DNA of 64,000 bases from a virus. The number at the start of each line of letters is the position of its first letter. Position 1 is the first letter of the stretch. Shown here piece by piece: positions 43,154-56,419 of this stretch. The notes beneath the pieces were generated by a model that was given only the letters and a program-made list of their open reading frames with translations, did no database searches and was not told the origin of the DNA. Made by a program: the position numbers and the translations under genes. Location of the stretch: IMG/VR virus record IMGVR_UViG_3300025120_000025, positions 1 to 64,000 of that record. One strand, 5' to 3'.

Positions 43154-44626
43154 ATGAAAAGCAAAAGAGTATGTGTACTAGGTGCTGGTAACGCAGGATT
43201 AATGGCGGCACTTATATTGAAAATAGAACGACCAGGACTTGATGTTTATGTTGTAGGTTCATCAGAAATAGGTATCGTAGGTGTTGGCGAAAGTAGCACA
43301 GAACACGTTAATTATTTTAGAGACTTACTTGGCGTATCAGTTCAAGATTTTGTCACAGAAAGTGGTTGTACCTTTAAGTATGGTGTAGACTTTCAAGGTT
43401 GGACCGATAAGAGATATATTCACTCTCTTACTGCGAATGACGATGGTATTCGTACAGACCCTTATCACACCGAACCAGAAGAATTATTCATGTATACAAA
43501 CATGAGTGCGAATTGCGATCCATTAGATTTAGTTCAACCTACACAATTAAACTATGAAGTTTCTGAAACAGATAATTTTCCTAATCAGTTTCACTTTGAC
43601 ACACAGAAGTTTAATAAATTTCTTCATACACAGATAAAAAAACGTGGTATTAGATATTATGATGATATTATTAGTTCAGTAAAGGTAAGTGAATGGGGCG
43701 ATTGTGAAGCGATTGAAAGTGAAAGTACAAGATATGAGGCAGACATCTTTGTTGATGCTAGTGGATTTAAAAGAATTATAGCATCAGAAGTGCCTGGTTT
43801 TGAATTTCATTCTAGACAAGATGAGATGTTTGTAGATAGTGCATTTGCATTTCAGTGTCCGCATGATGAACCAGATAACTATCCAGTATTTACTCAAGCA
43901 CACAAAATGAACTGTGGTTGGATGTGGAGAATACCTACGTCTGAACGTATGGGTAATGGTTATGCATATAGTTCAAAGCATATCTCATATGAAGATGCAG
44001 TCGAAGAAGTAACAGAGAAACTAGGGTTTAGACCAAATGTTGGTAAGACTTTCAAATTTGAAGCAGGTAATTATAAAAGAACATGGGTAGGCAATACAGT
44101 ACTGATTGGTCTATCATCACACTTTTACGAACCTTTAGAAGCAACTGCAATCGGTGTTGGCATATCACAAGCAAGAGTATTAGCGAACTATATTAATTCG
44201 TCTACCATATCTAAAAATACATACAATACAATAATTCAAGATTTATTTGAACAAGTATTTGCTTTTGTGAGACTACACTATGTAAACTGTCATGCAGATA
44301 CACCTTTTTGGCAAGATGTATCTAAGTCAATTATACCGCCAGAAGTGAAAAAATATCTTGACATTACTAGTGAACGTGTGCTATTATTAGAAGATGTTGG
44401 AAATATAAGTGGTGCAGTCACCACAGAAAATAGAATATTTGGGGCACATAACTGGAATCAAGTACTGTATGCATTAGGGTTTTTATCAGAAGAAGTTCTT
44501 AAAGACCATGTACAAGCATATGGACATATTCCTAGACGTAGAAAATTTAAAGATTTTGACGATGTGATCCCACATAAACAATTAATTGATAAATGGAACA
44601 ATAATGAAAATAGCATTAGTAACTGA
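43154..44626 (+). CDS. flavin-dependent halogenase (PrnA/tryptophan halogenase family)
   Basis: GAGNAG FAD motif, VGVGES, TFKYG (catalytic Lys position), WMWRIP, FYEPLEAT. Confidence 0.9.
   Translation: MKSKRVCVLGAGNAGLMAALILKIERPGLDVYVVGSSEIGIVGVGESSTEHVNYFRDLLGVSVQDFVTESGCTFKYGVDFQGWTDKRYIHSLTANDDGIRTDPYHTEPEELFMYTNMSANCDPLDLVQPTQLNYEVSETDNFPNQFHFDTQKFNKFLHTQIKKRGIRYYDDIISSVKVSEWGDCEAIESESTRYEADIFVDASGFKRIIASEVPGFEFHSRQDEMFVDSAFAFQCPHDEPDNYPVFTQAHKMNCGWMWRIPTSERMGNGYAYSSKHISYEDAVEEVTEKLGFRPNVGKTFKFEAGNYKRTWVGNTVLIGLSSHFYEPLEATAIGVGISQARVLANYINSSTISKNTYNTIIQDLFEQVFAFVRLHYVNCHADTPFWQDVSKSIIPPEVKKYLDITSERVLLLEDVGNISGAVTTENRIFGAHNWNQVLYALGFLSEEVLKDHVQAYGHIPRRRKFKDFDDVIPHKQLIDKWNNNENSISN
44358..44387 (+). 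promoter_or_regulatory. probable sigma70-type promoter inside the halogenase gene, serving gp47/gp46
   Basis: AAAATATC-TTGACA-18 bp-TATTAT with TGn. Confidence 0.5.
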
Positions 44627-45671
44627 TACACACTTTGGAGCAAGAAACGATAGCGAAGTCTTTAATAATTATTTCTTTAAGTTTTATGACAATGTTTTCT
44701 TTCCATATCTAGAGAAACATAATATCAAAACGTGCATACATCTAGGCGATATAACAGATAGACGTAAGTTTATAAACTTCAAGACATTACATAAGTTTAG
44801 AAAAGATTTTGTATGGCGTCTAGGTAGTATGGGTATAGACACTCATGTTATTATAGGCAACCACGATACATACTTTAAGAACACAAACGAAGTAAACAGT
44901 ATGGAAACATTGTTCACATCATTCGATGGTAAGTTAGAACCTTGGATTTATACAGAAGCATCTGAAGTAGAATTTGATGGATGTAAGATATTGTTTGTGC
45001 CTTGGATATGTGATGATAATCGTGAAAGAACTATGAACACTATTGATGAGACTGATGCACAAGTTCTTATGGGTCATTTAGAAGTCAAAGGTTTTACAAT
45101 GTATCGTGGGTTCACAAACTTTGACCATGGATTAGACAGAAGTATATTCAAGAAGTTTGATTGTGCATTTAGTGGTCACTTTCATCATAAATCAACTCAA
45201 GACAATATTACATATCTAGGTAATCCATATCAAATGACATGGTCTGACTATGGTGATAAACGTGGGTTTCACATATTCGATACAGAAACTAGAGAGATTG
45301 AATTTATTGAGAATCCGTATTCTATATTCAAGAAGTTAGAATATAATGATAGAGATAAGTCATATGAAGACTTTGATGCAAGTGATTTCAAAGACCATTT
45401 TGTAAAGGTGGTAGTAATAAACAAAATCAATGCGAAAATGTTTGACAAAGTAATAGATAAACTGTATAATGCAGATGTACATGAAATTAATATTATTGAA
45501 GATTTTACAGATTTCAATGCTACTTTTGTTGATGATAAGAATTTACAGTTAGACGATACTTTATCCTTGCTACATAGTTACGTTGATGAAGTTGACACTA
45601 CTGCGAACAAAGAACGAATAAAAAATGACATGAAACGATTATATGTTGAAGCGAGTAATCAAACAGTATGA
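44604..45671 (+). CDS. gp47: recombination nuclease gp47 (Mre11/SbcD-like)
   Basis: Start moved to MKIALV; DTHFG, LGD..DRR, GNHD, SGHFH. Confidence 0.95.
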   Translation: MKIALVTDTHFGARNDSEVFNNYFFKFYDNVFFPYLEKHNIKTCIHLGDITDRRKFINFKTLHKFRKDFVWRLGSMGIDTHVIIGNHDTYFKNTNEVNSMETLFTSFDGKLEPWIYTEASEVEFDGCKILFVPWICDDNRERTMNTIDETDAQVLMGHLEVKGFTMYRGFTNFDHGLDRSIFKKFDCAFSGHFHHKSTQDNITYLGNPYQMTWSDYGDKRGFHIFDTETREIEFIENPYSIFKKLEYNDRDKSYEDFDASDFKDHFVKVVVINKINAKMFDKVIDKLYNADVHEINIIEDFTDFNATFVDDKNLQLDDTLSLLHSYVDEVDTTANKERIKNDMKRLYVEASNQTV

Positions 45672-47386
45672 TAAAATTTGAATATGTAAGGTGGCGCAAT
45701 TTTCTATCTACAGGAAATCAATTCACCGAAATTGAAGTATGTAAATCACCAACGACACTTGTAGTTGGTTCAAATGGTTCTGGTAAGTCTACATTCATAG
45801 ATGCTCTATGTTTTGCATTGTTTAATAAACCTTTTCGTAAGATTAAGATTGGTCAGTTAATCAATTCAATTAACATGAAAGATGCACTAGTAGAAGTTGA
45901 ATTCAGTATTGGTTCTTCTCAGTATAAAGTAAGAAGAGGATTAAAACCTAATCTGTTTGAAATTTATCAGAACAATATCTTAATTAATCAAGATGCGGCA
46001 ACGAAAGACTATCAAGAGTTTTTAGAGAAACAGATACTAAAACTAAACTATAAGTCTTTCACTCAAATTGTTGTTCTTGGTTCATCGACTTTTATACCCT
46101 TTATGCAACTACCAGCACCTCATCGTAGAGAGATTATTGAAGATTTACTTGACATTCAAATATTCACACGAATGAATGATATTCTCAAAGGTGAGTTGTT
46201 ACAAGTTGGTTCAGAGTATAAAGATGCAGAGAGTAAACTGTCGGTTGTTCGACAGTCAATCGATTTGCAAGAAGACTACTTGGAGCGAATAGATGAGCAA
46301 CGTAAGAAATCGACAGAGGAAATTAACGAGCGAATTGTCAAGGCGAAGAACACAATACATGAATACACAGAAGAAGTCTCCGAAAAACAACGAACTATCG
46401 CTGAATTACAACGAAGCATTGAAGACGAGGAATCAATTACACGCAGAAAAAATAAAATAAACTCATTACAAGACCAGATGAAGCGAACACAAAAGAAAGT
46501 TGCGAATGATATTACATTCTATAGAGATAATGATGAGTGTAGTACTTGTAAGCAAGATATTCCTGTATCATTTAAAGAAGATGTAATCAAAGCAAGAACT
46601 GCTAAACTACAAGAGATTGAAGTGGCATCTGTTGATTTAGATAGAAAATGGGATGATACAAATACTAGATTGAATGAGATACATGAAGTTCAAAAGAAAG
46701 TAACTTGGCAACAACAATCTATTAATGATAGACAAGTTCGTATTCAAGCAGAGAACAGAAGCATTGCAGAATGGAATACAGACATTGAACGTGCGAATGC
46801 TATAGCATTAAATGATGAAGAACATCAAAACAAACTTGTTACTATGAGAGAAGAAGAACGTCAAGTATCTGACACAAAGAATACATTGAACGACAAAAGA
46901 TATTACTCAGAGATATCAGCAAACTTACTCAAAGATACTGGTATCAAAACTAAGATTATAAATCAATATCTACCAGTCATCAATCATTATGTAAATCATT
47001 TTCTACAAGCACTTGACTTCTTTGTTCAGTTTAATCTTGATGGTTCATTCAAAGAAACAATCAAGTCTAGACATAGAGATGATTTTAGTTACGCATCATT
47101 CTCTGAAGGCGAGAAGTTGAGAATTGATTTATCACTATTGTTTACTTGGCGTACTATTGCAAAGATGAAAAATTCAACTAACACAAATCTATTGATACTA
47201 GACGAAGTGTTTGATAGTTCATTAGACGCAAATGGTACAGAAGAGTTTTTAAAAATCCTAAATACTATGGACAAAGGAATCAATGCATTTGTCATATCGC
47301 ATAAAGGTGACACATTGTTTGACAAGTTTACAAACACAGTTCGTTTTGCGAAACCAAATAATTATTCTAGAATTGAGGCACAATGA
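45668..47386 (+). CDS. gp46: recombination ATPase gp46 (Rad50/SbcC-like)
   Basis: GSNGSGKST, CSTC hook, FSEGEK signature, LDEVFD. Confidence 0.96.
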   Translation: MIKFEYVRWRNFLSTGNQFTEIEVCKSPTTLVVGSNGSGKSTFIDALCFALFNKPFRKIKIGQLINSINMKDALVEVEFSIGSSQYKVRRGLKPNLFEIYQNNILINQDAATKDYQEFLEKQILKLNYKSFTQIVVLGSSTFIPFMQLPAPHRREIIEDLLDIQIFTRMNDILKGELLQVGSEYKDAESKLSVVRQSIDLQEDYLERIDEQRKKSTEEINERIVKAKNTIHEYTEEVSEKQRTIAELQRSIEDEESITRRKNKINSLQDQMKRTQKKVANDITFYRDNDECSTCKQDIPVSFKEDVIKARTAKLQEIEVASVDLDRKWDDTNTRLNEIHEVQKKVTWQQQSINDRQVRIQAENRSIAEWNTDIERANAIALNDEEHQNKLVTMREEERQVSDTKNTLNDKRYYSEISANLLKDTGIKTKIINQYLPVINHYVNHFLQALDFFVQFNLDGSFKETIKSRHRDDFSYASFSEGEKLRIDLSLLFTWRTIAKMKNSTNTNLLILDEVFDSSLDANGTEEFLKILNTMDKGINAFVISHKGDTLFDKFTNTVRFAKPNNYSRIEAQ

Positions 47387-47940
47387 TACTACCACTAACA
47401 AATCCACATGACGTTAAGAACTTAGGCGCACCGCCTGAATTTGATTTTCTAAACCCTATTGTTGAACCTGTAGAACTTGCAGATAGACTGTGGGAGAACA
47501 TGAAACACTATAATGGTGTAGGACTATCTGCTACGCAAGTAGGTATTCATACTAAAGTGTTTGTGATGGGTAGAGATGATTTTCGTATGAATGTTTTTAA
47601 TCCTAAAGTTATTCAGATATCACCTGAACTACAAGCATTCAAAGAAGGTTGTTTAACATGGCCATTCTTAATGTTATCAATTAGAAGACCTGTAGATTGC
47701 ACTATAACATACTACAATGAACACAACGAAGCAAAGAACATCAAACTACAAGATATGTCTGCTAGAGTATTCTTACATGAGTATGACCATATGTTAGGCA
47801 TTGATTTCACACAGAGAGCATCTAAACTAGCACTAGATATTGGTATGAAGAAAAGAGATAAGATGTTAAAAAAATTGGAGCGATCCGGAAAGTTAGAGAA
47901 AGCAGATGGAGACACTTACTCAATACCACAGACTTCCTAA
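47383..47940 (+). CDS. def: peptide deformylase
   Basis: GVGLSATQ, EGCL and HEYDH motifs. Confidence 0.93.
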   Translation: MILPLTNPHDVKNLGAPPEFDFLNPIVEPVELADRLWENMKHYNGVGLSATQVGIHTKVFVMGRDDFRMNVFNPKVIQISPELQAFKEGCLTWPFLMLSIRRPVDCTITYYNEHNEAKNIKLQDMSARVFLHEYDHMLGIDFTQRASKLALDIGMKKRDKMLKKLERSGKLEKADGDTYSIPQTS

Positions 47941-48442
47941 AGAAGACGAAATCGTATCACAAGGTTTAGAACTGTTTAGTTGGGATACTGCTATTGAAAA
48001 TTTTGAAGCATCTGTAGCAGAACGAAAAAAGTATTCTGACTTTGTTCAACGTGGTGTGAGAGTTGTGGGTATTGAGGATGAAGATGATGAAACAAAGTTT
48101 AATATGTTACCTACACTTGTTTCTCATCATGCAGAACTAATACCAGTCGTTCAAGAAATGAGAAAAGTGTTAGAATTTAAACACAATGTCAAAGACCCAC
48201 ATAGAGTTAATTGTCATATGTTTATATCACTGGTATCACACTCACAATGCTTTGACTGGCACAGTGATTATGATAACACATACATCTGGCAGATAAAGGG
48301 TAGAACAAAATGGTACACTGGTGAAGATGATGCCATACTTGAACCAAATGATATGATATATATTCCACACGGAAAGATGCACAGATTAGAAATTATAGAA
48401 CCAAGAATATCAGTAAGTTTCAGCATTGAGAGAAAGGTATAA
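47906..48442 (+). CDS. JmjC/cupin-like Fe(II) oxygenase
   Basis: WHSD..WQIKG..W..LEPNDMIYIP.G.MH..RISVS. Confidence 0.75.
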   Translation: METLTQYHRLPKEDEIVSQGLELFSWDTAIENFEASVAERKKYSDFVQRGVRVVGIEDEDDETKFNMLPTLVSHHAELIPVVQEMRKVLEFKHNVKDPHRVNCHMFISLVSHSQCFDWHSDYDNTYIWQIKGRTKWYTGEDDAILEPNDMIYIPHGKMHRLEIIEPRISVSFSIERKV

Positions 48443-48443
48443 T

Positions 48444-49577
48444 ATGGAAGAAGCAATGAAAGATTGGCAGAAAGGATATCAGTTAGATTATCTAAAAGAG
48501 ATTACTGCCGAGTACGATAATTATAATAAATACACCGATAGTCCTTTTGCACAGTTCAAGAAGAATAACGTAGCAGACTTTTTAGATAAAGGTACTCTAC
48601 GCAAAGCAGGCGATGCTTGGATTAATATTAAAGAAGCAAAAGTTCGTTCTAAGATTACGATGCATGGAACTGGACCTATCATCGGTTATAAAGAACCTGG
48701 TGATGTTATAATTGAAAATATTTCTCAGTACACAGAGAATGTAAAAAACTATATCGGAGCATATTCTAATAGAAGTTGCTGGTTGTTTGGTTGGGCAGAA
48801 GATGAAAAGTTTATTCATTTTGCTGAAGATTGTGGGTTTGAGTATGTTGGTAGTAAAATAACGACATTTGCAGAGATTTATAGCGTATACTATCGTAATT
48901 CTAGTATATCCTTCGAGGATCGTTCACACACGCTCATAGACGGCGCTGAGGCGGTTAACATCAAGAAGTGTACATTTGATAACATCGAAACATCGTTTAT
49001 CGTCACTGAACTAGAAAATATCCAACAAGAATACACAAATCACTACTCAAATTACAATAAGAAAGGATCATGGTCAGCAATATCTCTCAGAGGTTACAGA
49101 CCAGATGCATCTTTTATTGCAAAACCAGTAGAGATGAATAAGAAATGGAAAGCAGATAACGATACATGGGAAGAATGGCAATGTGAAGATACCCCATTGC
49201 GTGAAAAGTTTCCTTATGTAAATGAACTTATTTCGAAGATACCTACTGATAGGGTCGAACGGATTAGATTTATGTCTCTCGTACCAGGAGGTGGAGAATT
49301 GAGTAGACATACTGACCAAGTCGATCCTGACTTAGGTGTTGCAGACGGAAGAATTATGAGACTACATATTCCAGTAATTACAAATCCTAAGATGGAGTTT
49401 ACTTCATGGAATATGCATGGTCAGAAACATAATGTAAATATGAAAGAAGGTGAACTGTGGTACCTCGATATTCGAAAACCACACATGGCAGTGAATAATG
49501 GTGATGATATCAGAATTCATTTAGTAGTGGATGTAGAAGCAAATGATAAATGCAGACGATTATTTAGCGTTAGTTGA
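48444..49577 (+). CDS. fusion of GNAT-like N-domain and Asp/Asn/Pro-hydroxylase-type 2OG-Fe(II) domain
   Basis: C-domain RHTD..RLHIPVITNP..GELWYLD..PH..RIHLVVD; N-domain WL..WAED..F...CGF..VG resembles GNAT motif B (weak); ATG at 48444. Confidence 0.7.
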   Translation: MEEAMKDWQKGYQLDYLKEITAEYDNYNKYTDSPFAQFKKNNVADFLDKGTLRKAGDAWINIKEAKVRSKITMHGTGPIIGYKEPGDVIIENISQYTENVKNYIGAYSNRSCWLFGWAEDEKFIHFAEDCGFEYVGSKITTFAEIYSVYYRNSSISFEDRSHTLIDGAEAVNIKKCTFDNIETSFIVTELENIQQEYTNHYSNYNKKGSWSAISLRGYRPDASFIAKPVEMNKKWKADNDTWEEWQCEDTPLREKFPYVNELISKIPTDRVERIRFMSLVPGGGELSRHTDQVDPDLGVADGRIMRLHIPVITNPKMEFTSWNMHGQKHNVNMKEGELWYLDIRKPHMAVNNGDDIRIHLVVDVEANDKCRRLFSVS

Positions 49578-50310
49578 AGATTGGGTCGACCCTTATGATG
49601 CACCCGTTATTGAGATGCATGATGACATTCATGTTGTTCGTGACGATTTGCTTCCTGCTGGTAGTAAGATTAGGTTCATCGACAAACTCATTAGAGATAC
49701 CGAATGCGAAGAATGGGTATTTGGAGGAAGCAACAAAGTTGGTTGGGGTCCTATTTCTTTAGCGTATGTTTGTAAAAAATATAATAAGAATTCAACTTGC
49801 TTTTGGGCGGCACGAAAAGAACCAACATGGCATCAAGAAAAATATCTTGAATACGGAGGTAATATTGAATGGGTGAAGATGGGAATGTTAAATGTTACTC
49901 TGTCAAAAGCAGAGCATTATCGCAGAGAGAGTCCGAAGACCCGAAAGACGTTGCCTTTAGGACTAGAACACGATTGGGTGCTAGGAAGTATAGTGAAAGT
50001 ATCGCAGTCGCTACCTCTAGTGCCAGACGTAATATGGACAGTAGGATCAAGCGGAACTCTGAACCGAGGGTTGCAACTTGCATTCCCAGAGTCCGAAGTT
50101 CATGTGATACAGACGGGTCATAAACTTAGTGAGAGACAGATTGGTAGAGCAATCTTACATGAAGTACCTTATAAGTTTGATAAACCAGTAAAAGAGGAAG
50201 AAGCACCACCTTTTCCTTCTGCGCCTGAATATGATGCGAAAGCATGGAAAGTGATAAAAGAAAATATGAACAATAGTAAAACTAATTTATTTTGGAATGT
50301 AGCGGCATGA
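49543..50310 (+). CDS. PLP-dependent enzyme (fold type II; ACC deaminase/cysteine synthase-like)
   Basis: VVRDDLL..GSKIR (PLP Lys), VGSSGT loop, YDAKAW, LFWNV. Confidence 0.8.
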   Translation: MINADDYLALVEDWVDPYDAPVIEMHDDIHVVRDDLLPAGSKIRFIDKLIRDTECEEWVFGGSNKVGWGPISLAYVCKKYNKNSTCFWAARKEPTWHQEKYLEYGGNIEWVKMGMLNVTLSKAEHYRRESPKTRKTLPLGLEHDWVLGSIVKVSQSLPLVPDVIWTVGSSGTLNRGLQLAFPESEVHVIQTGHKLSERQIGRAILHEVPYKFDKPVKEEEAPPFPSAPEYDAKAWKVIKENMNNSKTNLFWNVAA

Positions 50311-50855
50311 GAAAGCAAATCGATTATGTAGATGATTTGTTTACTGATGAGTTTATTCAAGAAGTATCAACTAAGTATCATACAAATTTATTTGAATATG
50401 GCAACGTATCTAATAATCCTAATGATGCAATCTTTTGGTCATCTAGACGTTTGAATGATAATTCACCGATTACAGATTGTTGGCATCAAAAGAAAATACT
50501 TGATGTTATATCTGACTATTATAAATTTAAAACTTTCAAAGTAGACAATCAAAATATCTATATCAATGGTCAGACATATAAGTTAGATGGTTCAATGCAT
50601 ATCGATAGTGGTCATAGAACTGATCCTGATGCACACATGACAATCTTGTATATGGTAAACTGGCAAGATGCAGGCATACAAGGTTTTGAAACAAATATGG
50701 GTATTGTTCCATTCAAGGCAGGTAGAGTTGTGATTTTCAACTCAATAATGTCACATAGAGGACTATCTACTGAAAGCGTGAATAATCTAAGAATGACATT
50801 AACTTGGAAAAGTTGCGAAATAGTACTTGACAAAACTAGTCCTTTAGTGTTATAA
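50307..50855 (+). CDS. 2OG-Fe(II) oxygenase
   Basis: ATGA overlap with the upstream stop; NGQT..MHID..GRVVIF....HRG..RMT. Confidence 0.8.
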   Translation: MRKQIDYVDDLFTDEFIQEVSTKYHTNLFEYGNVSNNPNDAIFWSSRRLNDNSPITDCWHQKKILDVISDYYKFKTFKVDNQNIYINGQTYKLDGSMHIDSGHRTDPDAHMTILYMVNWQDAGIQGFETNMGIVPFKAGRVVIFNSIMSHRGLSTESVNNLRMTLTWKSCEIVLDKTSPLVL

Positions 50856-50856
50856 T
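50827..50856 (+). promoter_or_regulatory. sigma70-type early promoter
   Basis: AAATAGTAC-TTGACA-18 bp-TATAAT with TGn. Confidence 0.7.
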
Positions 50857-51082
50857 GAAAACTTATATACACGTTAATCAACATAAGATTAGAGCAAACA
50901 AAAAACATGGTACCAATGAACCTGTCATCACTATCAAAAAAGGTAGAACGAACACATATTGTCATGCAGTTAAAATACATGGCGACAGTGTAGTGAGATA
51001 TGGTGGTAGCGAAAAACCTATTCTCTCTTGCGGTGCAAGAGTAGTAATAGAAACTGACAATGAAGTAGAGGTTATTGAATGA
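50855..51082 (+). CDS. conserved small hypothetical protein
   Basis: IHVNQH.IR.N.K..PVIT.K..LSCGARV.IET; coupled on both sides. Confidence 0.7.
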   Translation: MKTYIHVNQHKIRANKKHGTNEPVITIKKGRTNTYCHAVKIHGDSVVRYGGSEKPILSCGARVVIETDNEVEVIE

Positions 51083-52635
51083 AGCATTTTTACGAGAGAA
51101 ATAGTTATCTATTAGAACACGAAGTCAATAAGACATTCGAAGAAGTTCTATGGATGTCCGATGAAGATTTTAGAACATGGTTGCGTGATATGCGTAGAGA
51201 AGTCGTTTATTCATGGGATACTCTCGGTCTACCCCCTAGAGTTGGTTGGTCAGAAGATAAGATTATTGACCAGTTTAATAAGATGTCTAGTTTCAACGTA
51301 AAAGACTTTGAATGCTTTAATGAAGAAACTAATGACACAGATGTTATTAGAAATACTAGTGTTATAGGTAATGCCGCCAATCAGTTCTTTCCTACAATGA
51401 TGAAGACTAAGATTGTGTATAATGATATAAGTAAAGCAAAGAGCATCTACGACCATTTTGTAGACGAAGACTTATTTCAAAAGGTATACACATATGGACA
51501 TAGACATTTCAAGAGAGATAGTTTTTATCACTATTCTAATCCTGTCAAGTTGGATGATGTACTAGATTTCGAAAATCAAAAGTACAAAGTAAAATCTGGC
51601 GTAGACTTTATTAACTGGTTTGAGAAAGTAGGAAGACAATACGATACACACGACTATTGGTTGAAACCTGATAAAGAAGAAGAGTATACAGGTTATGATG
51701 ATAAACTTAGAGGTGTTAATTGGGCATCTTTAACTAGAGAAGAAATTGAGAAATTAGATATTCCTGAGAACTGTAAAGTAAACATGAAAGATGATATGAA
51801 TGTATATCAAATTATGTTTTTTAAAAAAGGTCAAAAGATTTTTCCTCTAGGTTTCAAACCATTTCGTATTTCATGGTGTCAATATGCCGTGAACTTTCCA
51901 CCATTAACTGCAAAGTATCTCTATGAAAAATATACCGAACACTTTAAAGAACAGTCTACTATTCGTATTTGGGATCCTAGTGCTGGTTGGGGTGGTCGTA
52001 TTCTCGGTGCTATGTCTGTTCGTGATGACCGCTCTATACATTATATTGGTACTGATCCCAACACTGACCACACTGTTGTATTGGAAGATGGTACCAAATC
52101 AACAAAGTATGAAGAACTAGCGAGATTTTTCAATGAAAAAACATACAGAGGCAACGGACTCTTCCCACACACAAACACATACGAGATACATCAAGTCGGT
52201 TCAGAGACCTTTGAGTGTGAGGAAAACTCTCTCGACATGGTATTCACTTCCCCACCATATTTCGCCAAAGAGGCGTACAGTGATGACGAAGAACAATCAT
52301 ACAAGAAGTTCGACCAATACGAAACGTGGGTAGAAGGTTTTCTGAGACCTACATTAGAGAATGCTTACAAGTATCTTAAAAGCGACAGATACTTGCTCTG
52401 GAACATTGCTGATGCTAAATTTGGTAACACTATGCTTCCACTAGAATCCGATAGCATAAATATATGTAAGAACCTAGGGTTTGAATATGTGACTATGTTG
52501 AAAATGGCACTTGCTCAAATGCCTGGCGGTAATAGAGTAGATGAGGAGACAGGTAAACCACGAGCAAAGAATTTTTGTAAAGTGAATGGTATCTGGTTAA
52601 AATATGAACCAATCTTTGTTTTTAGAAAGTCGTAA
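51079..52635 (+). CDS. SAM-dependent DNA amino-methyltransferase-like protein (N4C/N6A class)
   Basis: DPSAGWGGR (SAM motif I) and FTSPPYF (motif IV); long N-terminal extension. Confidence 0.8.
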   Translation: MKHFYERNSYLLEHEVNKTFEEVLWMSDEDFRTWLRDMRREVVYSWDTLGLPPRVGWSEDKIIDQFNKMSSFNVKDFECFNEETNDTDVIRNTSVIGNAANQFFPTMMKTKIVYNDISKAKSIYDHFVDEDLFQKVYTYGHRHFKRDSFYHYSNPVKLDDVLDFENQKYKVKSGVDFINWFEKVGRQYDTHDYWLKPDKEEEYTGYDDKLRGVNWASLTREEIEKLDIPENCKVNMKDDMNVYQIMFFKKGQKIFPLGFKPFRISWCQYAVNFPPLTAKYLYEKYTEHFKEQSTIRIWDPSAGWGGRILGAMSVRDDRSIHYIGTDPNTDHTVVLEDGTKSTKYEELARFFNEKTYRGNGLFPHTNTYEIHQVGSETFECEENSLDMVFTSPPYFAKEAYSDDEEQSYKKFDQYETWVEGFLRPTLENAYKYLKSDRYLLWNIADAKFGNTMLPLESDSINICKNLGFEYVTMLKMALAQMPGGNRVDEETGKPRAKNFCKVNGIWLKYEPIFVFRKS

Positions 52636-53284
52636 TCTTTTTGTAAACCCTCCAGTTGATTTTGAAGATTGGGGTAATTTCGATTATGATAAAGCGTTTG
52701 GCATTGACAAGTATTGTTACAATGCATACAGGCACTTTATCTTACCTTATCTAACAGACCCAACTAATCAAACTATTGTTGATATTAACACCGGTAAAGG
52801 TTGTGGTATCGCTGGACTCAAGAGAGAGTTTGGTTTTAAAAAGTGTATCGGATTTACAGGTTCAACTCAATTACTACATCACTGCAAAGATATATGGAAT
52901 GAAAAAGGTCTATCATTCTATAAAGACTTCATCTTGTCTAAGCAAGGTAAAGCAGACTTTCTATTTTCATATGAAGCATTCGAAGATTATGATAATAAGA
53001 GTGCATTACTACTTAGACTATCACAAGCACTAAATGAAGACGGAATTTTAGTTATCATACAATCAACTTTCAATGATTATGAATATCACAGTTATGAGAA
53101 TATTCTAGAGAATGTACATGGACTTAAAAAATTATCATCTCAAGATATATCTGCCCATGTACTACAAGGAATCAAACAATTTGAACACCACAACGATGGT
53201 TCGATGTCTATTATGCATTCAAGATTTAGTAAAAACTTAACGAGACATGAGTATAAAATTATGGCAAGTGTATTTCAGAGATGA
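52604..53284 (+). CDS. class I SAM-dependent methyltransferase-like protein
   Basis: IVDINTGKG.G, ADFLFSYEAF and L...LNEDGILVI (degenerate motifs). Confidence 0.6.
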   Translation: MNQSLFLESRNLFVNPPVDFEDWGNFDYDKAFGIDKYCYNAYRHFILPYLTDPTNQTIVDINTGKGCGIAGLKREFGFKKCIGFTGSTQLLHHCKDIWNEKGLSFYKDFILSKQGKADFLFSYEAFEDYDNKSALLLRLSQALNEDGILVIIQSTFNDYEYHSYENILENVHGLKKLSSQDISAHVLQGIKQFEHHNDGSMSIMHSRFSKNLTRHEYKIMASVFQR

Positions 53285-53787
53285 CAACAGTTTCAGTATT
53301 TGAAAATTTTCTATCATACGATGATTTATTTAATGTGAAAGAACTATCGAATGAAATCTATTATAGTCCAGACGCTTGTAAAAGTACTAATGCTGGTTGG
53401 ACTAAAGCAGTAATAGGTAATAGTTTTCCTGTTGTTTGTTGTAAGATAGAAGATGAAAAGTTATTAGAAGTTCTACAGAAAAAGATAGATGAAACTGCAA
53501 ATGAGTATGAGATAAAATCTGCAAGTTTTTTCTATTGGACAGAATTCAGTTATATACCTTGGCACGATGATGCAGGTCACGATGCGGCAATGACAATATA
53601 CTTATCCGACCACGATGAAAATGATGGTGGATATTTCATGTATAAAAGACAAGAAGAGATTGTAGCAATACCACCAGTAATGAATAGAGCAATACTTCAA
53701 GTAGAAGGCGTACCACATTCGACCACTGCATTGAATTCTAGGTCACCTATACGAAAAACAATTCAAATATTTCTTCAAAAAAAGTAA
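53281..53787 (+). CDS. prolyl-4-hydroxylase-like 2OG-Fe(II) oxygenase
   Basis: IPWHDD..TIYL..GGYF..P..NRA..PH.TT..RKTIQ. Confidence 0.85.
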   Translation: MTTVSVFENFLSYDDLFNVKELSNEIYYSPDACKSTNAGWTKAVIGNSFPVVCCKIEDEKLLEVLQKKIDETANEYEIKSASFFYWTEFSYIPWHDDAGHDAAMTIYLSDHDENDGGYFMYKRQEEIVAIPPVMNRAILQVEGVPHSTTALNSRSPIRKTIQIFLQKK

Positions 53788-53831: not shown

Positions 53832-53975
53832 ATGATGATATTTAAAAGTATTTGGTTCGGACTAACTCTTCCCTTTAGACTGATTTATTGGTTGATTTGT
53901 TGTATTTTTGCAACATATTTTATGATTTTCAGTTTATTTTGCATTATTGCCATAATTAGTGTGGTTTTCGCTTGA
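53832..53975 (+). CDS. 47-aa hydrophobic membrane peptide, probably leaderless (below ORF-track cutoff)
   Basis: MMIFKSIWFGLTLPFRLIYWLICCIFATYFMIFSLFCIIAIISVVFA*; ATG 7 nt after the -10 box. Confidence 0.55.
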   Translation: MMIFKSIWFGLTLPFRLIYWLICCIFATYFMIFSLFCIIAIISVVFA

Positions 53976-54000
53976 CATATACATTAAAATATGCGATAAT
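53972..54000 (+). promoter_or_regulatory. sigma70-type early promoter
   Basis: TTGACA-17 bp-GATAAT with TGn. Confidence 0.75.
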
Positions 54001-54030
54001 GTTTACATGATGATGAGAAAAGAGGTTGAT

Positions 54031-56343
54031 GTGAAAAACAATGTTAAAGAAATAAAGTCAGTACTAGCAAAATTACTTGCCACTGAAAATCTATCTGTAG
54101 AATTCGCTAATGTCGAGACTGCAAGTTTCGATGTTGAAAAACGTATTTTGCGTATTCCTACAATGAAAGATATCAGTGATGAAGTATTAGACTTGTTTGT
54201 TGGTCACGAAGTTTCTCACGCACTATACACTCCAATAGAGGGTCTAGAAAAACTCGCTGACAAACCTAAGAATTTTCACTCTTTTGTAAACGTAGTCGAA
54301 GATGTTCGTATTGAGCGACTAATTCAAAAGAAGTATCCTGGTCTGAGAAAACCTTTCTTTAATGCCTATGCTAAGTTGAAAGCAGATAACTTTTTCAAAC
54401 TTGATGGTATGAATGTTGCTGACCTTCTTCTTATCGACAGAATGAATGTTAAAGCAAAACTCGGTACACAAATCGATATTCCTTTCGATAGTGTAGAAGA
54501 AGAGTTTATGACCAGAGCAAAAACTACTGAGACTTTCGATGAAGTCTTTGCTCTTGCTGAAGAACTTTATGAGTATTGTCAAGATGAGTTAGAGAAAAAA
54601 AAGCAAGATGATCCTGAGCAAGTCGACCAGTATTTGACTTCAATGCCAATGTCTGGTGAGAATGAGAACGAAGAAGATTTTCAAGAACAAGACACTGCAC
54701 AGTCTGATGACAATCAAGAAGAGACTGGTAGTGAGAGTGAGCAATCAAAACCTGATACTGAAGAAGATGAAAATTCAAAAGAAGGTACAGATGTTCGTTC
54801 AAATGCTACTGAAAAGAGTGATGATGAAGGTGATGAAGGTGCAGAGACAAAACCTGTTCCAAAATCAAACATGACCGAAGACATTGCGAAAACAGAAGGT
54901 CTTACTCCTGGTGCGAAATCACTAACTGACCTTGCTACTCAACAATCTACTAAAGATATGGTTGAGACTGACACTAACAAGCAAGTTCGTTATTTTGATG
55001 TTCCTAAAGTTCTTAAAATCAATGACTACATTGTTCCTTTTCAAGAGATTAAAAAGAAACTTTATGACCATTGGAATGTTACTCCTGGTTCAAAAAATGA
55101 GACAACTCTTTCTAAGAATGTAAAAGAATTCAAGAAAGAAAATGAAAAAGTTATCAACTATTTGCATAAAGAATTCGAAATGAAAAAGCAGGCAGATAGA
55201 TATGCGAGAGCGACTACTGCCAGAACTGGTGTTCTGAATGTAAATAAGTTACACTCATACAAGTATAATGATGATATCTTCCTAAAGAAAAATATTATTC
55301 CTAATGGTAAAGACCACGGTATGGTTTTCTTTCTTGACTGGTCTGGTTCAATGGCAGATAATATGCATGGTACTATGCAACAGTTGATTAACCTTGCACT
55401 CTTTTGTAAGAAGGCGCAAATTCCTTTCGCCGCTTATGGGTTCTCTTCTGAGTATGCTAAGAACAACCTTTCACAAGAAGCAAAAATGATGCGTCAATCA
55501 AGAAATATGCACGAAGCAAACATTGAAAATATTTCTCTTCTTGAATTGTTCAGTGAGAAAATGACTTCAAAAGAATTCAATGATGCTCTCGGTGTTGCTA
55601 ATGCAATCGGTTCTATGTACGATAGAAAAAGCAGAGGCGACTATGCATGGTGGGGTCTTCCTCGTGATATGTATCTTGGTGGTACACCTCTTAATCATTG
55701 TATCGTACTTGCTACTAGATTAATAAAAGAATTCAAGCAAAGAAATAATGTGCAGATTGTTAGTACATCATTTTTAACTGATGGTTCAAGTCACTCTATC
55801 GATGGCGTTGTTGGTTATCAAAAAGACCGTGACGATGTTTCCCGAATGAGACATAATGATGATACTTATCGTCAAGCAGGTACTTTGATCCTGCGAGATG
55901 GTCAAAATCAAGTTGCTATCAAAAACAATAGTAAATGGTCAAGTGTCGATAGTAATGATATTACAAAAGGTTTGTACAAGTTGCTGAAAATATCAACTGG
56001 TGCTAATACAACTGGTTTCTTTGTCGCTGGTCGTAATGAAATTCGTTATGCTTGGTCACTGTACTTTGCAGATTGGACTAATAGAGATGATGATATGGCA
56101 GTCAGTTTTGACCACTGGAAAAAAGTCTTAACAAGAGATAATGCTACCACTTCTACAAAGTCTGGTCTTGATGAACTGTACATAATCAAAGGTGGTAAAG
56201 CACTTGAGGTTGTAGATGAAGGTCTTGGTGATGATATGAATGGTGCTTCAAAGCAAAAACTAACTACCGCATTCAAGAGAATGGGTCGTGGTAAACTAAA
56301 GAATAGGGTAATCCTACAAAAGTTTATCGAAAATATAGCATAA
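54031..56343 (+). CDS. HExxH metallopeptidase-like plus vWA domain protein (CobT-like partner of MoxR ATPase)
   Basis: HEVSH..NVVED.RIE, acidic linker, MIDAS DWSGS, GTPL, TDG; GTG start after GAGGT (alternative ATG at 54007). Confidence 0.85.
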   Translation: MKNNVKEIKSVLAKLLATENLSVEFANVETASFDVEKRILRIPTMKDISDEVLDLFVGHEVSHALYTPIEGLEKLADKPKNFHSFVNVVEDVRIERLIQKKYPGLRKPFFNAYAKLKADNFFKLDGMNVADLLLIDRMNVKAKLGTQIDIPFDSVEEEFMTRAKTTETFDEVFALAEELYEYCQDELEKKKQDDPEQVDQYLTSMPMSGENENEEDFQEQDTAQSDDNQEETGSESEQSKPDTEEDENSKEGTDVRSNATEKSDDEGDEGAETKPVPKSNMTEDIAKTEGLTPGAKSLTDLATQQSTKDMVETDTNKQVRYFDVPKVLKINDYIVPFQEIKKKLYDHWNVTPGSKNETTLSKNVKEFKKENEKVINYLHKEFEMKKQADRYARATTARTGVLNVNKLHSYKYNDDIFLKKNIIPNGKDHGMVFFLDWSGSMADNMHGTMQQLINLALFCKKAQIPFAAYGFSSEYAKNNLSQEAKMMRQSRNMHEANIENISLLELFSEKMTSKEFNDALGVANAIGSMYDRKSRGDYAWWGLPRDMYLGGTPLNHCIVLATRLIKEFKQRNNVQIVSTSFLTDGSSHSIDGVVGYQKDRDDVSRMRHNDDTYRQAGTLILRDGQNQVAIKNNSKWSSVDSNDITKGLYKLLKISTGANTTGFFVAGRNEIRYAWSLYFADWTNRDDDMAVSFDHWKKVLTRDNATTSTKSGLDELYIIKGGKALEVVDEGLGDDMNGASKQKLTTAFKRMGRGKLKNRVILQKFIENIA

Positions 56344-56389: not shown

Positions 56390-56419
56390 TTGACAAACTA
56401 CTAAGAATAATGCTATAAT
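56390..56419 (+). promoter_or_regulatory. sigma70-type early promoter
   Basis: AAATAGTGC-TTGACA-18 bp-TATAAT with TGn. Confidence 0.8.

Follow-up and report, generated by a model that had tools for sequence, protein, structure and literature searches.

A conserved viral gene module joining an amino-methyltransferase-like protein, a pyridoxal phosphate enzyme, and a hydroxylase, with a proposed role in DNA base hypermodification

We analyzed a stretch of 64,000 nucleotides, positions 1 to 64,000 of the IMG/VR virus record IMGVR_UViG_3300025120_000025, which we refer to as the window. The record as a whole is 102,947 bases long, is estimated to be about 57% complete, and comes from an uncultured marine T4-like phage. 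On the plus strand, 3′ of gp46 and a peptide deformylase gene, lie eight open reading frames (ORFs), designated g1 to g8, which overlap by 1 to 35 nucleotides or abut (Table 1); gp47 (Metallophos_2) is also encoded upstream of this cluster, and a CobS-like AAA protein is encoded downstream. A preliminary description of the window had reported these eight ORFs, overlapping or abutting after gp46 and the deformylase gene, as a candidate operon for DNA hypermodification, and all eight are located as it claimed. We find that the cluster is a conserved three-gene module within a variable region. The three core genes encode an AspH-type hydroxylase fusion (g2), a pyridoxal phosphate (PLP) enzyme (g3), and an amino-methyltransferase-like protein (g6), and we propose that their products may act together in the hypermodification of DNA bases.

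Table 1. Genes of the cluster, their upstream anchor, and predicted catalytic features of the core proteins (window coordinates)
Feature	Position	Strand	Description
gp46 (SbcC-like)	45668-47386	+	phrog_77, 2e-165; conserved upstream anchor of the module
Peptide deformylase	47383-47940	+	PF01327, 2.7e-30; forms the conserved upstream anchor with gp46
g1, accessory	47906-48442	+	JmjC/cupin oxygenase-like; JmjC_2 6e-7, Cupin_2, phrog_4992 5e-17, HxD...H motif; 11/80 loci
g2, core	48426-49577	+	N-terminal domain (about residues 1-195) fused to an AspH-type Fe(II)/2-oxoglutarate (2OG) hydroxylase
g2 metal triad codons	H295 49308-49310; D297 49314-49316; H365 49518-49520	+	Invariant in 22 homologs (alignment A3); numbering from the TTG start
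g3, core	49543-50310	+	Compact (255 residues) fold-type II PLP enzyme of the phrog_7093 / M6 gp52 family
g3 K42 codon	49666-49668	+	Predicted PLP Schiff-base lysine; invariant in 22 homologs (alignment A1); motif VVRDDLLxAGSKxRF
g3 GSSGT loop (G168-T172)	50044-50058	+	Expected to hold the PLP phosphate; S169, S170, and G171 invariant in 22 homologs (A1); aligns with SSGT of M6 gp52
g4, accessory	50292-50855	+	2OG-Fe(II) oxygenase; phrog_274 9e-18, PF13640 7e-4 (below cut-off); 14/80 loci
g5, accessory	50855-51082	+	75 residues; phrog_8676 8e-21; 6/80 loci
g6, core	51079-52635	+	518 residues; family-specific N-terminal domain (residues 1 to about 265) and class I amino-methyltransferase domain (about 270-518)
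g6 motif I, DPSxGWGGR (D299-R307)	51973-51999	+	S-adenosylmethionine (SAM)-binding motif; invariant in 30 homologs (alignment A2)
g6 motif IV, FTSPPYF (F389-F395)	52243-52263	+	Catalytic motif; invariant in 30 homologs (A2)
g7, accessory	52604-53284	+	Small class I SAM methyltransferase; Methyltransf_23 27.3 bits (cut-off 27); 11/80 loci
g8, accessory	53281-53787	+	2OG-Fe(II) oxygenase; phrog_274 1e-9, PF13640 1.6e-4 (below cut-off); 4/80 loci

Linkage of the core genes was assessed across other viral contigs. A scan yielded 160 stretches with full-length g6 relatives, and the best 80 of these were compared by tblastn of all window proteins; 55 loci had at least 4 kb of upstream sequence and a visible gp46 and were used for counting. 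The order gp46, g2, g3, g6 is found in 45 of the 55, g2 only is present in 2, and neither g2 nor g3 is present in 8. A whole-contig search of five records from the last group located a g3 homolog about 39 kb away in two of them (E = 1e-124 to 1e-126); in the remaining three, which are 13 to 64% complete, the same search found no g3. The preliminary description had named co-occurrence of homologs of the genes at 48444, 49543, and 51079 as a check on its proposal. Indeed, co-occurrence is far beyond chance, the order is kept, and the corresponding domains are fused elsewhere. The module is essentially viral: in a set holding one genome for each of 185,579 prokaryote species, just four loci have a g3 relative. 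Two of these are long and prove to be T4-like phage contigs from metagenome bins, with gp46 upstream; the other two are short and contain g2 and g3 alone.

The same domains also recur within single polypeptides. We searched longer proteins with a g3 family profile and mapped the hits by blastp and Pfam; a search with the g6 N-terminal domain added others. Single proteins of 994 to 1,191 amino acids consist of a g6-like methyltransferase, then a g2-like hydroxylase with most of its N-terminal domain, and then a g3-like PLP enzyme, and P0010 and P0012 (the latter labeled Nitrosomonas nitrosa) cover residues 1 to 517 of g6. Methyltransferase-PLP proteins of about 680 residues are also found, as are separate AspH-type hydroxylase-PLP proteins. 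Fusions of methyltransferase and PLP enzyme occur in both orders, including P0102 and P0182 from the g6 N-terminal domain search, and those lacking a g2-like domain are common (P0014 to P0019, P0102, P0182, and the type represented by phage R6L, below). That these domains have been joined repeatedly and independently is, at the level of sequence, strong evidence that those of g2, g3, and g6 act on one shared substrate.

The methyltransferase-PLP pair is present in cultured phages of Erythrobacter (R6L and ZS04) and of Microcystis (Mae-JY30). In gp1 of Erythrobacter phage vB_EliS-R6L (807 amino acids; L083:3807-6227), a ParB-like domain precedes a PF01555 methylase, into which a PLP domain is inserted after motif I and before motif IV. 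In the R6L paper, gp1 is described as a CcrM-like methylase, and the PLP insertion went unnoticed. Many metagenomic relatives (P0026 to P0042) have the same architecture, with a motif IV that reads SCPPY in R6L and (S/T/A)CPPY overall; cysteine here takes the place of the D, N, or S of amino-methyltransferases. One protein of this type, P0029, carries an intein composed of Hint plus LAGLIDADG. In Mae-JY30, a stand-alone g3 homolog lies 3′ of a ParB/methylase gene. A fourth kind of amino-methyltransferase partner occurs in P0045 and P0046; there, the g3-type PLP domain shares a polypeptide with a PCIF1_WW-type domain, which resembles the methyltransferase for cap N6,2′-O-dimethyladenosine (m6Am).

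The structural model of g3, with a predicted local distance difference test score (pLDDT) of 91.7, was compared with known structures using Foldseek. Its matches are threonine deaminase, D-cysteine desulfhydrase, 1j0a, O-acetylserine sulfhydrylase (OASS), and SbnA (TMq 0.6 to 0.76, E-values down to 1e-9), with the highest TM-score for the 1-aminocyclopropane-1-carboxylate (ACC) deaminase homolog 1j0a (TMq 0.76). The predicted fold is the tryptophan-synthase-beta-like two-domain fold of fold-type II PLP enzymes.

Profile comparisons place g3 in the family of M6 gp52, a decarboxylase that acts on DNA. The phrog_7093 model matches g3 at 1.3e-34 over positions 14 to 278 of 279 and gp52 at 3.6e-159, and hhalign aligns g3 with gp52 over 218 columns with a probability of 97.5% (E = 6e-12). 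On gp52, the g3 profile scores 37.8 bits; K42 aligns with gp52 K36 (K75 of the ORF), and the two proteins share a C-terminal signature, PFP..YD.KAW...WN. The g3 profile retrieved no PLP enzyme from all PDB sequences at E 10, so that gp52 is a closer relative of g3 than any enzyme of solved structure is. Both M6 gp52 and ViI gp226 have been purified and are PLP-dependent enzymes that decarboxylate amino acids linked to the bases of polymeric DNA; K36 was named as the aldimine lysine of gp52, and gp226 was modeled on 1j0a (Lee et al. 2021; PMC8989533). In the M6 genome, gp52 has as neighbors an amino-acid:DNA transferase (AADT), a radical SAM enzyme, and a 5-hydroxymethyldeoxyuridine (5-hmdU) DNA kinase (HMUDK). 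Together, the fold match and the membership in phrog_7093 with gp52 bear out the earlier call of a fold-type II PLP enzyme. By analogy, g3 is predicted to decarboxylate a base-linked amino acid, an activity established for gp52 and gp226 alone.

The model of g6 (pLDDT 84.8), in which a class I methyltransferase domain begins at about residue 270, confirms that the predicted fold is amino-methyltransferase-like. PF01555 (N6_N4_Mtase) scores 31.8 and 35.8 bits on g6 against a cut-off of 26.7, covering residues 386 to 517 only; g6 thus combines an above-cut-off score with a class I fold, motif I, and a motif IV of the form (D/N/S)PP(Y/F), the features that mark PF01555 amino-methyltransferases. 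SPPY is present in 53 of 58 motif matches among longer g6-family representatives and in every g6-like fusion, and the string F-T-S-P-P-Y is compatible with the PROSITE signature of N4-cytosine methylases. The best matches of g6 in a viral structure library (E = 2e-13) carry the annotation N4-cytosine DNA methyltransferase, a name that was assigned automatically. A g6 profile search of all PDB sequences gave nothing below E 0.25. Cultured phages contain no full-length g6, and its C-terminal half alone matches other phage methylases.

The N-terminal domain of g6 comprises about 260 residues, many of them invariant, and matches no known family. It has relatives in 286 cluster representatives among 1.84 billion proteins, and the 150 of these 286 that were listed all match g6 and no other window protein. 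Results of a wide structural search with g6 were dominated by its methyltransferase domain. We considered the N-terminal domain as a hidden AADT and rejected this assignment, with an hhalign probability of 0.2% against M6 gp51. A predicted complex of g6 and g3 had a score of 0.00 (mark 0.32), which counts neither for nor against binding.

For g2, candidate start codons are TTG at 48426 and ATG at 48444 and 48456, and homologs start at MKDWQ, which corresponds to 48456. The C-terminal part matches Asp_Arg_Hydrox (PF05118) at 4.3e-15 with 56.3 bits (cut-off 22.6), and the best match of the g2 profile in the PDB is L-proline cis-4-hydroxylase (4p7w, 1.1e-10), with a beta-hydroxylase and proline 3-hydroxylase also retrieved; by these profile matches, the closest relatives of the catalytic domain appear to be free amino-acid hydroxylases. 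The preliminary description had called the N-terminal domain GNAT-like. Pfam gave no GNAT hit in any of 22 family members at E 5, no acetyl-CoA-binding glycine motif was noticed when the alignment of this domain was read by eye, and the two leads on which the call rests, an N-acetyltransferase in the PDB at E 0.21 and a protein atlas score of 0.78, are not significant. The GNAT label is tentative at best; most of the other domain calls hold.

The sole g2 homolog in a cultured phage is gp4 of Mycobacterium phage LilMcDreamy. Its gene lies directly after that of an amino-acid:DNA transferase, gp3 (PF18724, 47 bits), next to the terminase, and beside the gp3-gp4 pair are gp2, with a weak Tet_JBP hit, and the ParB-like gp1. 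As judged from these domain matches, this neighborhood is an independent DNA-hypermodification context for g2. LilMcDreamy gp1 to gp4 resemble a hypermodification cluster, so far undescribed, of a mycobacteriophage in culture; gp2 to gp4 span L091:855-3756, and gp2 is annotated as a queuine tRNA-ribosyltransferase yet matches Tet_JBP weakly.

Neither HMUDK (PF18723) nor AADT (PF18724) was detected in the 102,947-base record, and a PF18724 control matched nowhere; both models do detect their M6 counterparts, gp51 and gp54. The earlier statement that the window contains no recognizable 5-hydroxymethyluracil kinase or amino-acid:DNA transferase thus holds across the whole record of about 103 kb.

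The other five genes behave differently from the core. Matches to g1, g5, g7, and g8 are almost wholly restricted to the closest relatives, with low-identity matches of g1, g4, and g7 also present in loci L013 and L014. As a conserved unit, the suggested eight-gene operon does not hold: g1, g4, g5, g7, and g8 are lineage specific, and unrelated genes occupy the same gaps elsewhere. At distant loci, the gaps between core genes hold a dCMP deaminase, a NAD-dependent epimerase, a cupin, a cytidylyltransferase, a PfkB kinase, a 3′-phosphoadenosine-5′-phosphosulfate (PAPS) reductase, and a denV-like glycosylase. In six diverged loci, the dCMP deaminase gene is directly upstream of the g6 homolog, the slot taken by g4 and g5 in our record (L025:7468-7995, L057:7486-8001, L013:7555-7980, L050:6994-7461, L039:7174-7617, and L030:6927-7373). 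A gene with a PAPS reductase domain lies between g3 and g6 in the T4-like locus L089 (3716-4393), and another lies near the R6L methyltransferase-PLP fusion (L083:1377-2417), which makes it a recurrent neighbor. A TET/JBP-like role for the oxygenases finds no support: none of g1, g2, g4, and g8 matches Tet_JBP (PF12851) at E 0.1, and the families that they do match are JmjC_2, Asp_Arg_Hydrox, and 2OG-FeII_Oxy_3. Two further 2OG-FeII_Oxy_3 genes occur beyond the window (G000:C1:82926-83105 and 98516-98716); oxygenase paralogs are therefore scattered through the record and not confined to the cluster.

A perfect match to a sigma-70-type promoter (TTGACA, 18 nucleotides, TATAAT, TG) at 50827-50856 on the plus strand ends at the start of g5 and points into g5 and g6. 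It is one of three 12/12 sigma-70 consensus matches, all on the plus strand and just upstream of gene starts, the others being at 45442-45470 (gp46) and 56390-56419 (the cobS-like gene). As consensus matches alone, these sites would fit early expression, as for T4 DNA-metabolism genes. The window contains no tRNA genes. By megablast, the cluster has no match in cultured phages; a sensitive blastn search of the same phages gave a single match, 194 bases of g5 in Methylophilales phage Melnitz (Kyanoviridae), where the g5 relative adjoins a 2OG oxygenase gene. Just upstream of gp47 and gp46, positions 43154-44626 encode a 490-residue tryptophan halogenase homolog (PF04820, 1.4e-89). Between the cluster and the cobS-like gene is a 794-residue ORF (53959-56343) that has no Pfam family; most related loci have a homolog of it 3′ of g6, with identities of about 30 to 53%.

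We propose that g6, g3, and g2 carry out a post-replicative hypermodification of DNA bases in which a methyltransferase-like enzyme takes the lead and the product carries an amino-acid-derived side chain larger than a methyl group; we put the probability of this reading at roughly 0.55. A decarboxylase of the gp52 type requires an alpha-amino acid on the base, which a kinase and an AADT provide on 5-hmdU in the established pathways. Because HMUDK and AADT are absent from the record and from the self-contained fusions, the smallest of which consist of methyltransferase and PLP domains alone, and because the methyltransferase fold binds SAM, the amino-acid moiety would have to come from SAM. Likewise, given the co-occurrence and fusion of the core genes, the membership of g3 in the gp52 family, and the lack of HMUDK and AADT, a start by a SAM enzyme on an exocyclic amine would be the most economical explanation. 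In this respect the route sketched in the preliminary description stands in part: core linkage, kinship to gp52, and the lack of a kinase and transferase are retained, the single eight-gene operon is dropped, and the TET/JBP and GNAT elements find no clear support.

What the analysis shows is the order of the genes, their fusions, the folds and families to which the proteins belong, and the conservation of catalytic residues; from these we infer every chemical step of the following scheme. g6 would bind DNA through its family-specific N-terminal domain and flip a base, whose exocyclic amine (N4 of cytosine being likelier, judging by the motif, than N6 of adenine) would attack SAM in the TSPPYF site. 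Rather than methyl, g6 would transfer the 3-amino-3-carboxypropyl (acp) group, releasing methylthioadenosine. The newly attached chain would then be bound by g3 as a Schiff base through its alpha-amine, CO2 would be lost, and a cationic 3-aminopropyl group would be left. g2 would hydroxylate a carbon of this chain, and its N-terminal domain may add or recognize something more. The modified bases would shield phage DNA from host nucleases. This specific route, from acp transfer to an exocyclic amine, probably N4 of cytosine, through decarboxylation to hydroxylation, is more tentative than the general proposal, but it fits a recurring theme in which phage hypermodifications put a primary amine in the groove. 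More doubtful still is the full claim that g6 would be the first methyltransferase-fold enzyme to move the acp group of SAM to DNA, that with g3 and g2 it would make a base of the N4-(3-aminopropyl)cytosine type, hydroxylated in carriers of g2, and that such bases would form a hitherto unknown nitrogen-linked cationic class, widespread in marine T4-like phages and also found in the cultured phages of Erythrobacter and Microcystis.

Several observations weigh against the proposed pathway. To our knowledge, acp transfer by a methyltransferase of the g6 type is without precedent, and neither the donor group (methyl or acp) nor the target (DNA or RNA) can be read from the sequence or predicted fold of g6. 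In a PDB structure search with the g6 model, the top matches are the tRNA N2-methylguanosine (m2G) enzymes Trm11, TrmN, and Trm14 (Z 14.5 to 15.6), followed by generic methyltransferases at about 13, a ranking that does not tell DNA enzymes apart from RNA enzymes. The protein atlas returned no family for the N-terminal domains of g2 and g6 (scores 0.76 to 0.81). A Pfam scan of g3 gave no hit at E 0.1, PALP (PF00291) included; relatives of g3 do reach PALP (cut-off 35), with 46.3 bits for the Mae-JY30 homolog, 40.6 for R6L gp1, and 57.4 for P0102. Some contigs contain g6 and neither g2 nor g3 in the available sequence, and with about 57% of the genome in hand, a kinase or transferase could be encoded in the missing part.

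The m2G matches also favor a different target, that is, an RNA (tRNA or rRNA) or protein modified, for example, with acp or m2G so as to retune host translation, which would agree with the presence of the peptide deformylase gene nearby. Such a target has further points in its favor: some of the fusions are named TrmN6 in their source annotations, in P0045 the partner of the PLP domain is a PCIF1-like RNA methyltransferase domain, and acp transfer from SAM to a nucleobase nitrogen does occur on RNA, by Tyw2 (which has a methyltransferase-like fold), Tsr3, and TapT. We nevertheless consider it unlikely, since the characterized members of the g3 family act on DNA, the R6L-type fusion combines a ParB-like DNA-binding domain with a PF01555 DNA methylase, the best viral structural matches of g6 are DNA methylases, and a g2 homolog adjoins an amino-acid:DNA transferase. 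In addition, the lack of tRNA genes in the window speaks against it, and the Z-score margin of the m2G enzymes over generic methyltransferases is small. A lack of any joint pathway is the least probable of the explanations that we considered. Here, g6 would be an ordinary anti-restriction DNA methylase, and g2, g3, and the oxygenases would be unrelated auxiliary metabolic genes in a variable T4-like region; the interval from gp46 to cobS is indeed variable and holds many unrelated inserts, 2OG oxygenases are scattered in the record, and the five accessory genes are not conserved. However, the repeated independent fusion of the core domains, in several orders and also by domain insertion, is very hard to explain otherwise, and in two of the five checked records that lack the adjacent gene, g3 is kept elsewhere on the contig.

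Two other schemes retain a DNA target and change the chemistry. In one, which we regard as rather unlikely, g6 would methylate the base, giving N4-methylcytosine or N6-methyladenine, g2 would convert the methyl to N-hydroxymethyl, an amino acid would be added (e.g., with the g2 N-terminal domain acting as a Mom-like, aminoacyl-tRNA-dependent GNAT), and g3 would decarboxylate it, yielding an N-linked analog of the 5-hmdU pathway. This sequence parallels the known order of hydroxymethyl, amino acid, and PLP decarboxylation (PMC8989533) and has a precedent in Mom (PMC13219725), the g2 N-terminal domain gives weak GNAT leads, and g2 is fused to g3 in some proteins. However, methyltransferase-PLP proteins without a g2-like domain are common, and the PLP enzyme must then have a substrate without the hydroxylase; moreover, the GNAT match is not significant, and the nearest relatives of g2 hydroxylate carbons of amino acids and not N-methyl groups. 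In the other scheme, g3 would generate an aminoacrylate from serine, O-acetylserine, or O-phosphoserine, and the amine of the flipped base would attack it to give an alanyl-base, with SAM serving as a structural ligand or methyl donor. Such beta-replacement is catalyzed by the fold-type II enzymes OASS and SbnA, which are among the structural matches of g3, and the R6L-type insertion of a PLP domain into the methyltransferase would bring both active sites to one flipped base. We consider it very unlikely: g3 groups with the decarboxylase gp52 and not with OASS-type enzymes, and in g6 every SAM-binding motif is invariant, which speaks for genuine catalysis with SAM.

Every known phage DNA hypermodification that draws on amino acids begins with a 5-hydroxymethyl pyrimidine and depends on a kinase plus a dedicated transferase. 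If our proposal is true, the module would provide a second way in, independent of the first, where the installing enzyme resembles a DNA methylase, and a very abundant group of marine viruses would be found to use a new base chemistry. It would then bear on how these phages escape restriction and other nucleic-acid-targeting defenses and on how well the DNA of such phages is recovered and read in metagenomes, and it would supply a new enzyme set for site-directed derivatization of DNA.

Among known systems, g6 resembles the N4-cytosine and N6-adenine DNA methyltransferases (PF01555, including ParB-fused phage methylases) in its class I fold, motif I, TSPPY motif IV, and above-cut-off score. 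Unlike ordinary PF01555 methylases, it has a 260-residue N-terminal domain found only in its family and a motif order with I before IV, and it is accompanied by a PLP enzyme and a hydroxylase, as neighbors or as parts of one protein, partners that a plain methylase need not have. The proposed first step would be the same chemistry as that of Tyw2, Tsr3, and TapT. The substrates of those enzymes are tRNA or rRNA, however, and they neither resemble PF01555 nor have a PLP decarboxylase as a partner. In a literature search that did not extend to subscription-only papers, we found the thymidine, Mom, carboxymethylcytosine, and diaminopropane-thymine pathways and no account of a methyltransferase-PLP-hydroxylase module.

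Mom of phage Mu is a GNAT that places glycine from Gly-tRNA on N6 of adenine in DNA (PMC13219725). As proposed here, the module would share with Mom an amino-acid-derived group on an exocyclic base amine, placed on double-stranded DNA after replication and serving evasion of restriction. Unlike Mom, which is a single GNAT using Gly-tRNA, the module combines a methyltransferase fold with a PLP enzyme and a 2OG hydroxylase and has no significant GNAT match. The thymidine pathways of M6, ViI, and PaMx11 (Lee et al. 2018, 2021; PMC5889632, PMC8989533) differ in that our record gives no usable dUMP hydroxymethylase signal and contains no HMUDK or AADT; the partner of the PLP enzyme here is a TSPPYF amino-methyltransferase-like protein, which implies an exocyclic nitrogen and not C5 of thymine, and an AspH-type hydroxylase belongs to the core. 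These pathways nevertheless resemble the module in being post-replicative, as it is proposed to be, and in the enzyme that tailors their base-linked amino acid: a fold-type II PLP decarboxylase that belongs, like g3, to phrog_7093 and whose catalytic lysine aligns with that of g3. In them, too, the combination of tailoring enzymes differs from phage to phage, and metagenomes contain fused pathway enzymes (PMC5889632, PMC8989533).

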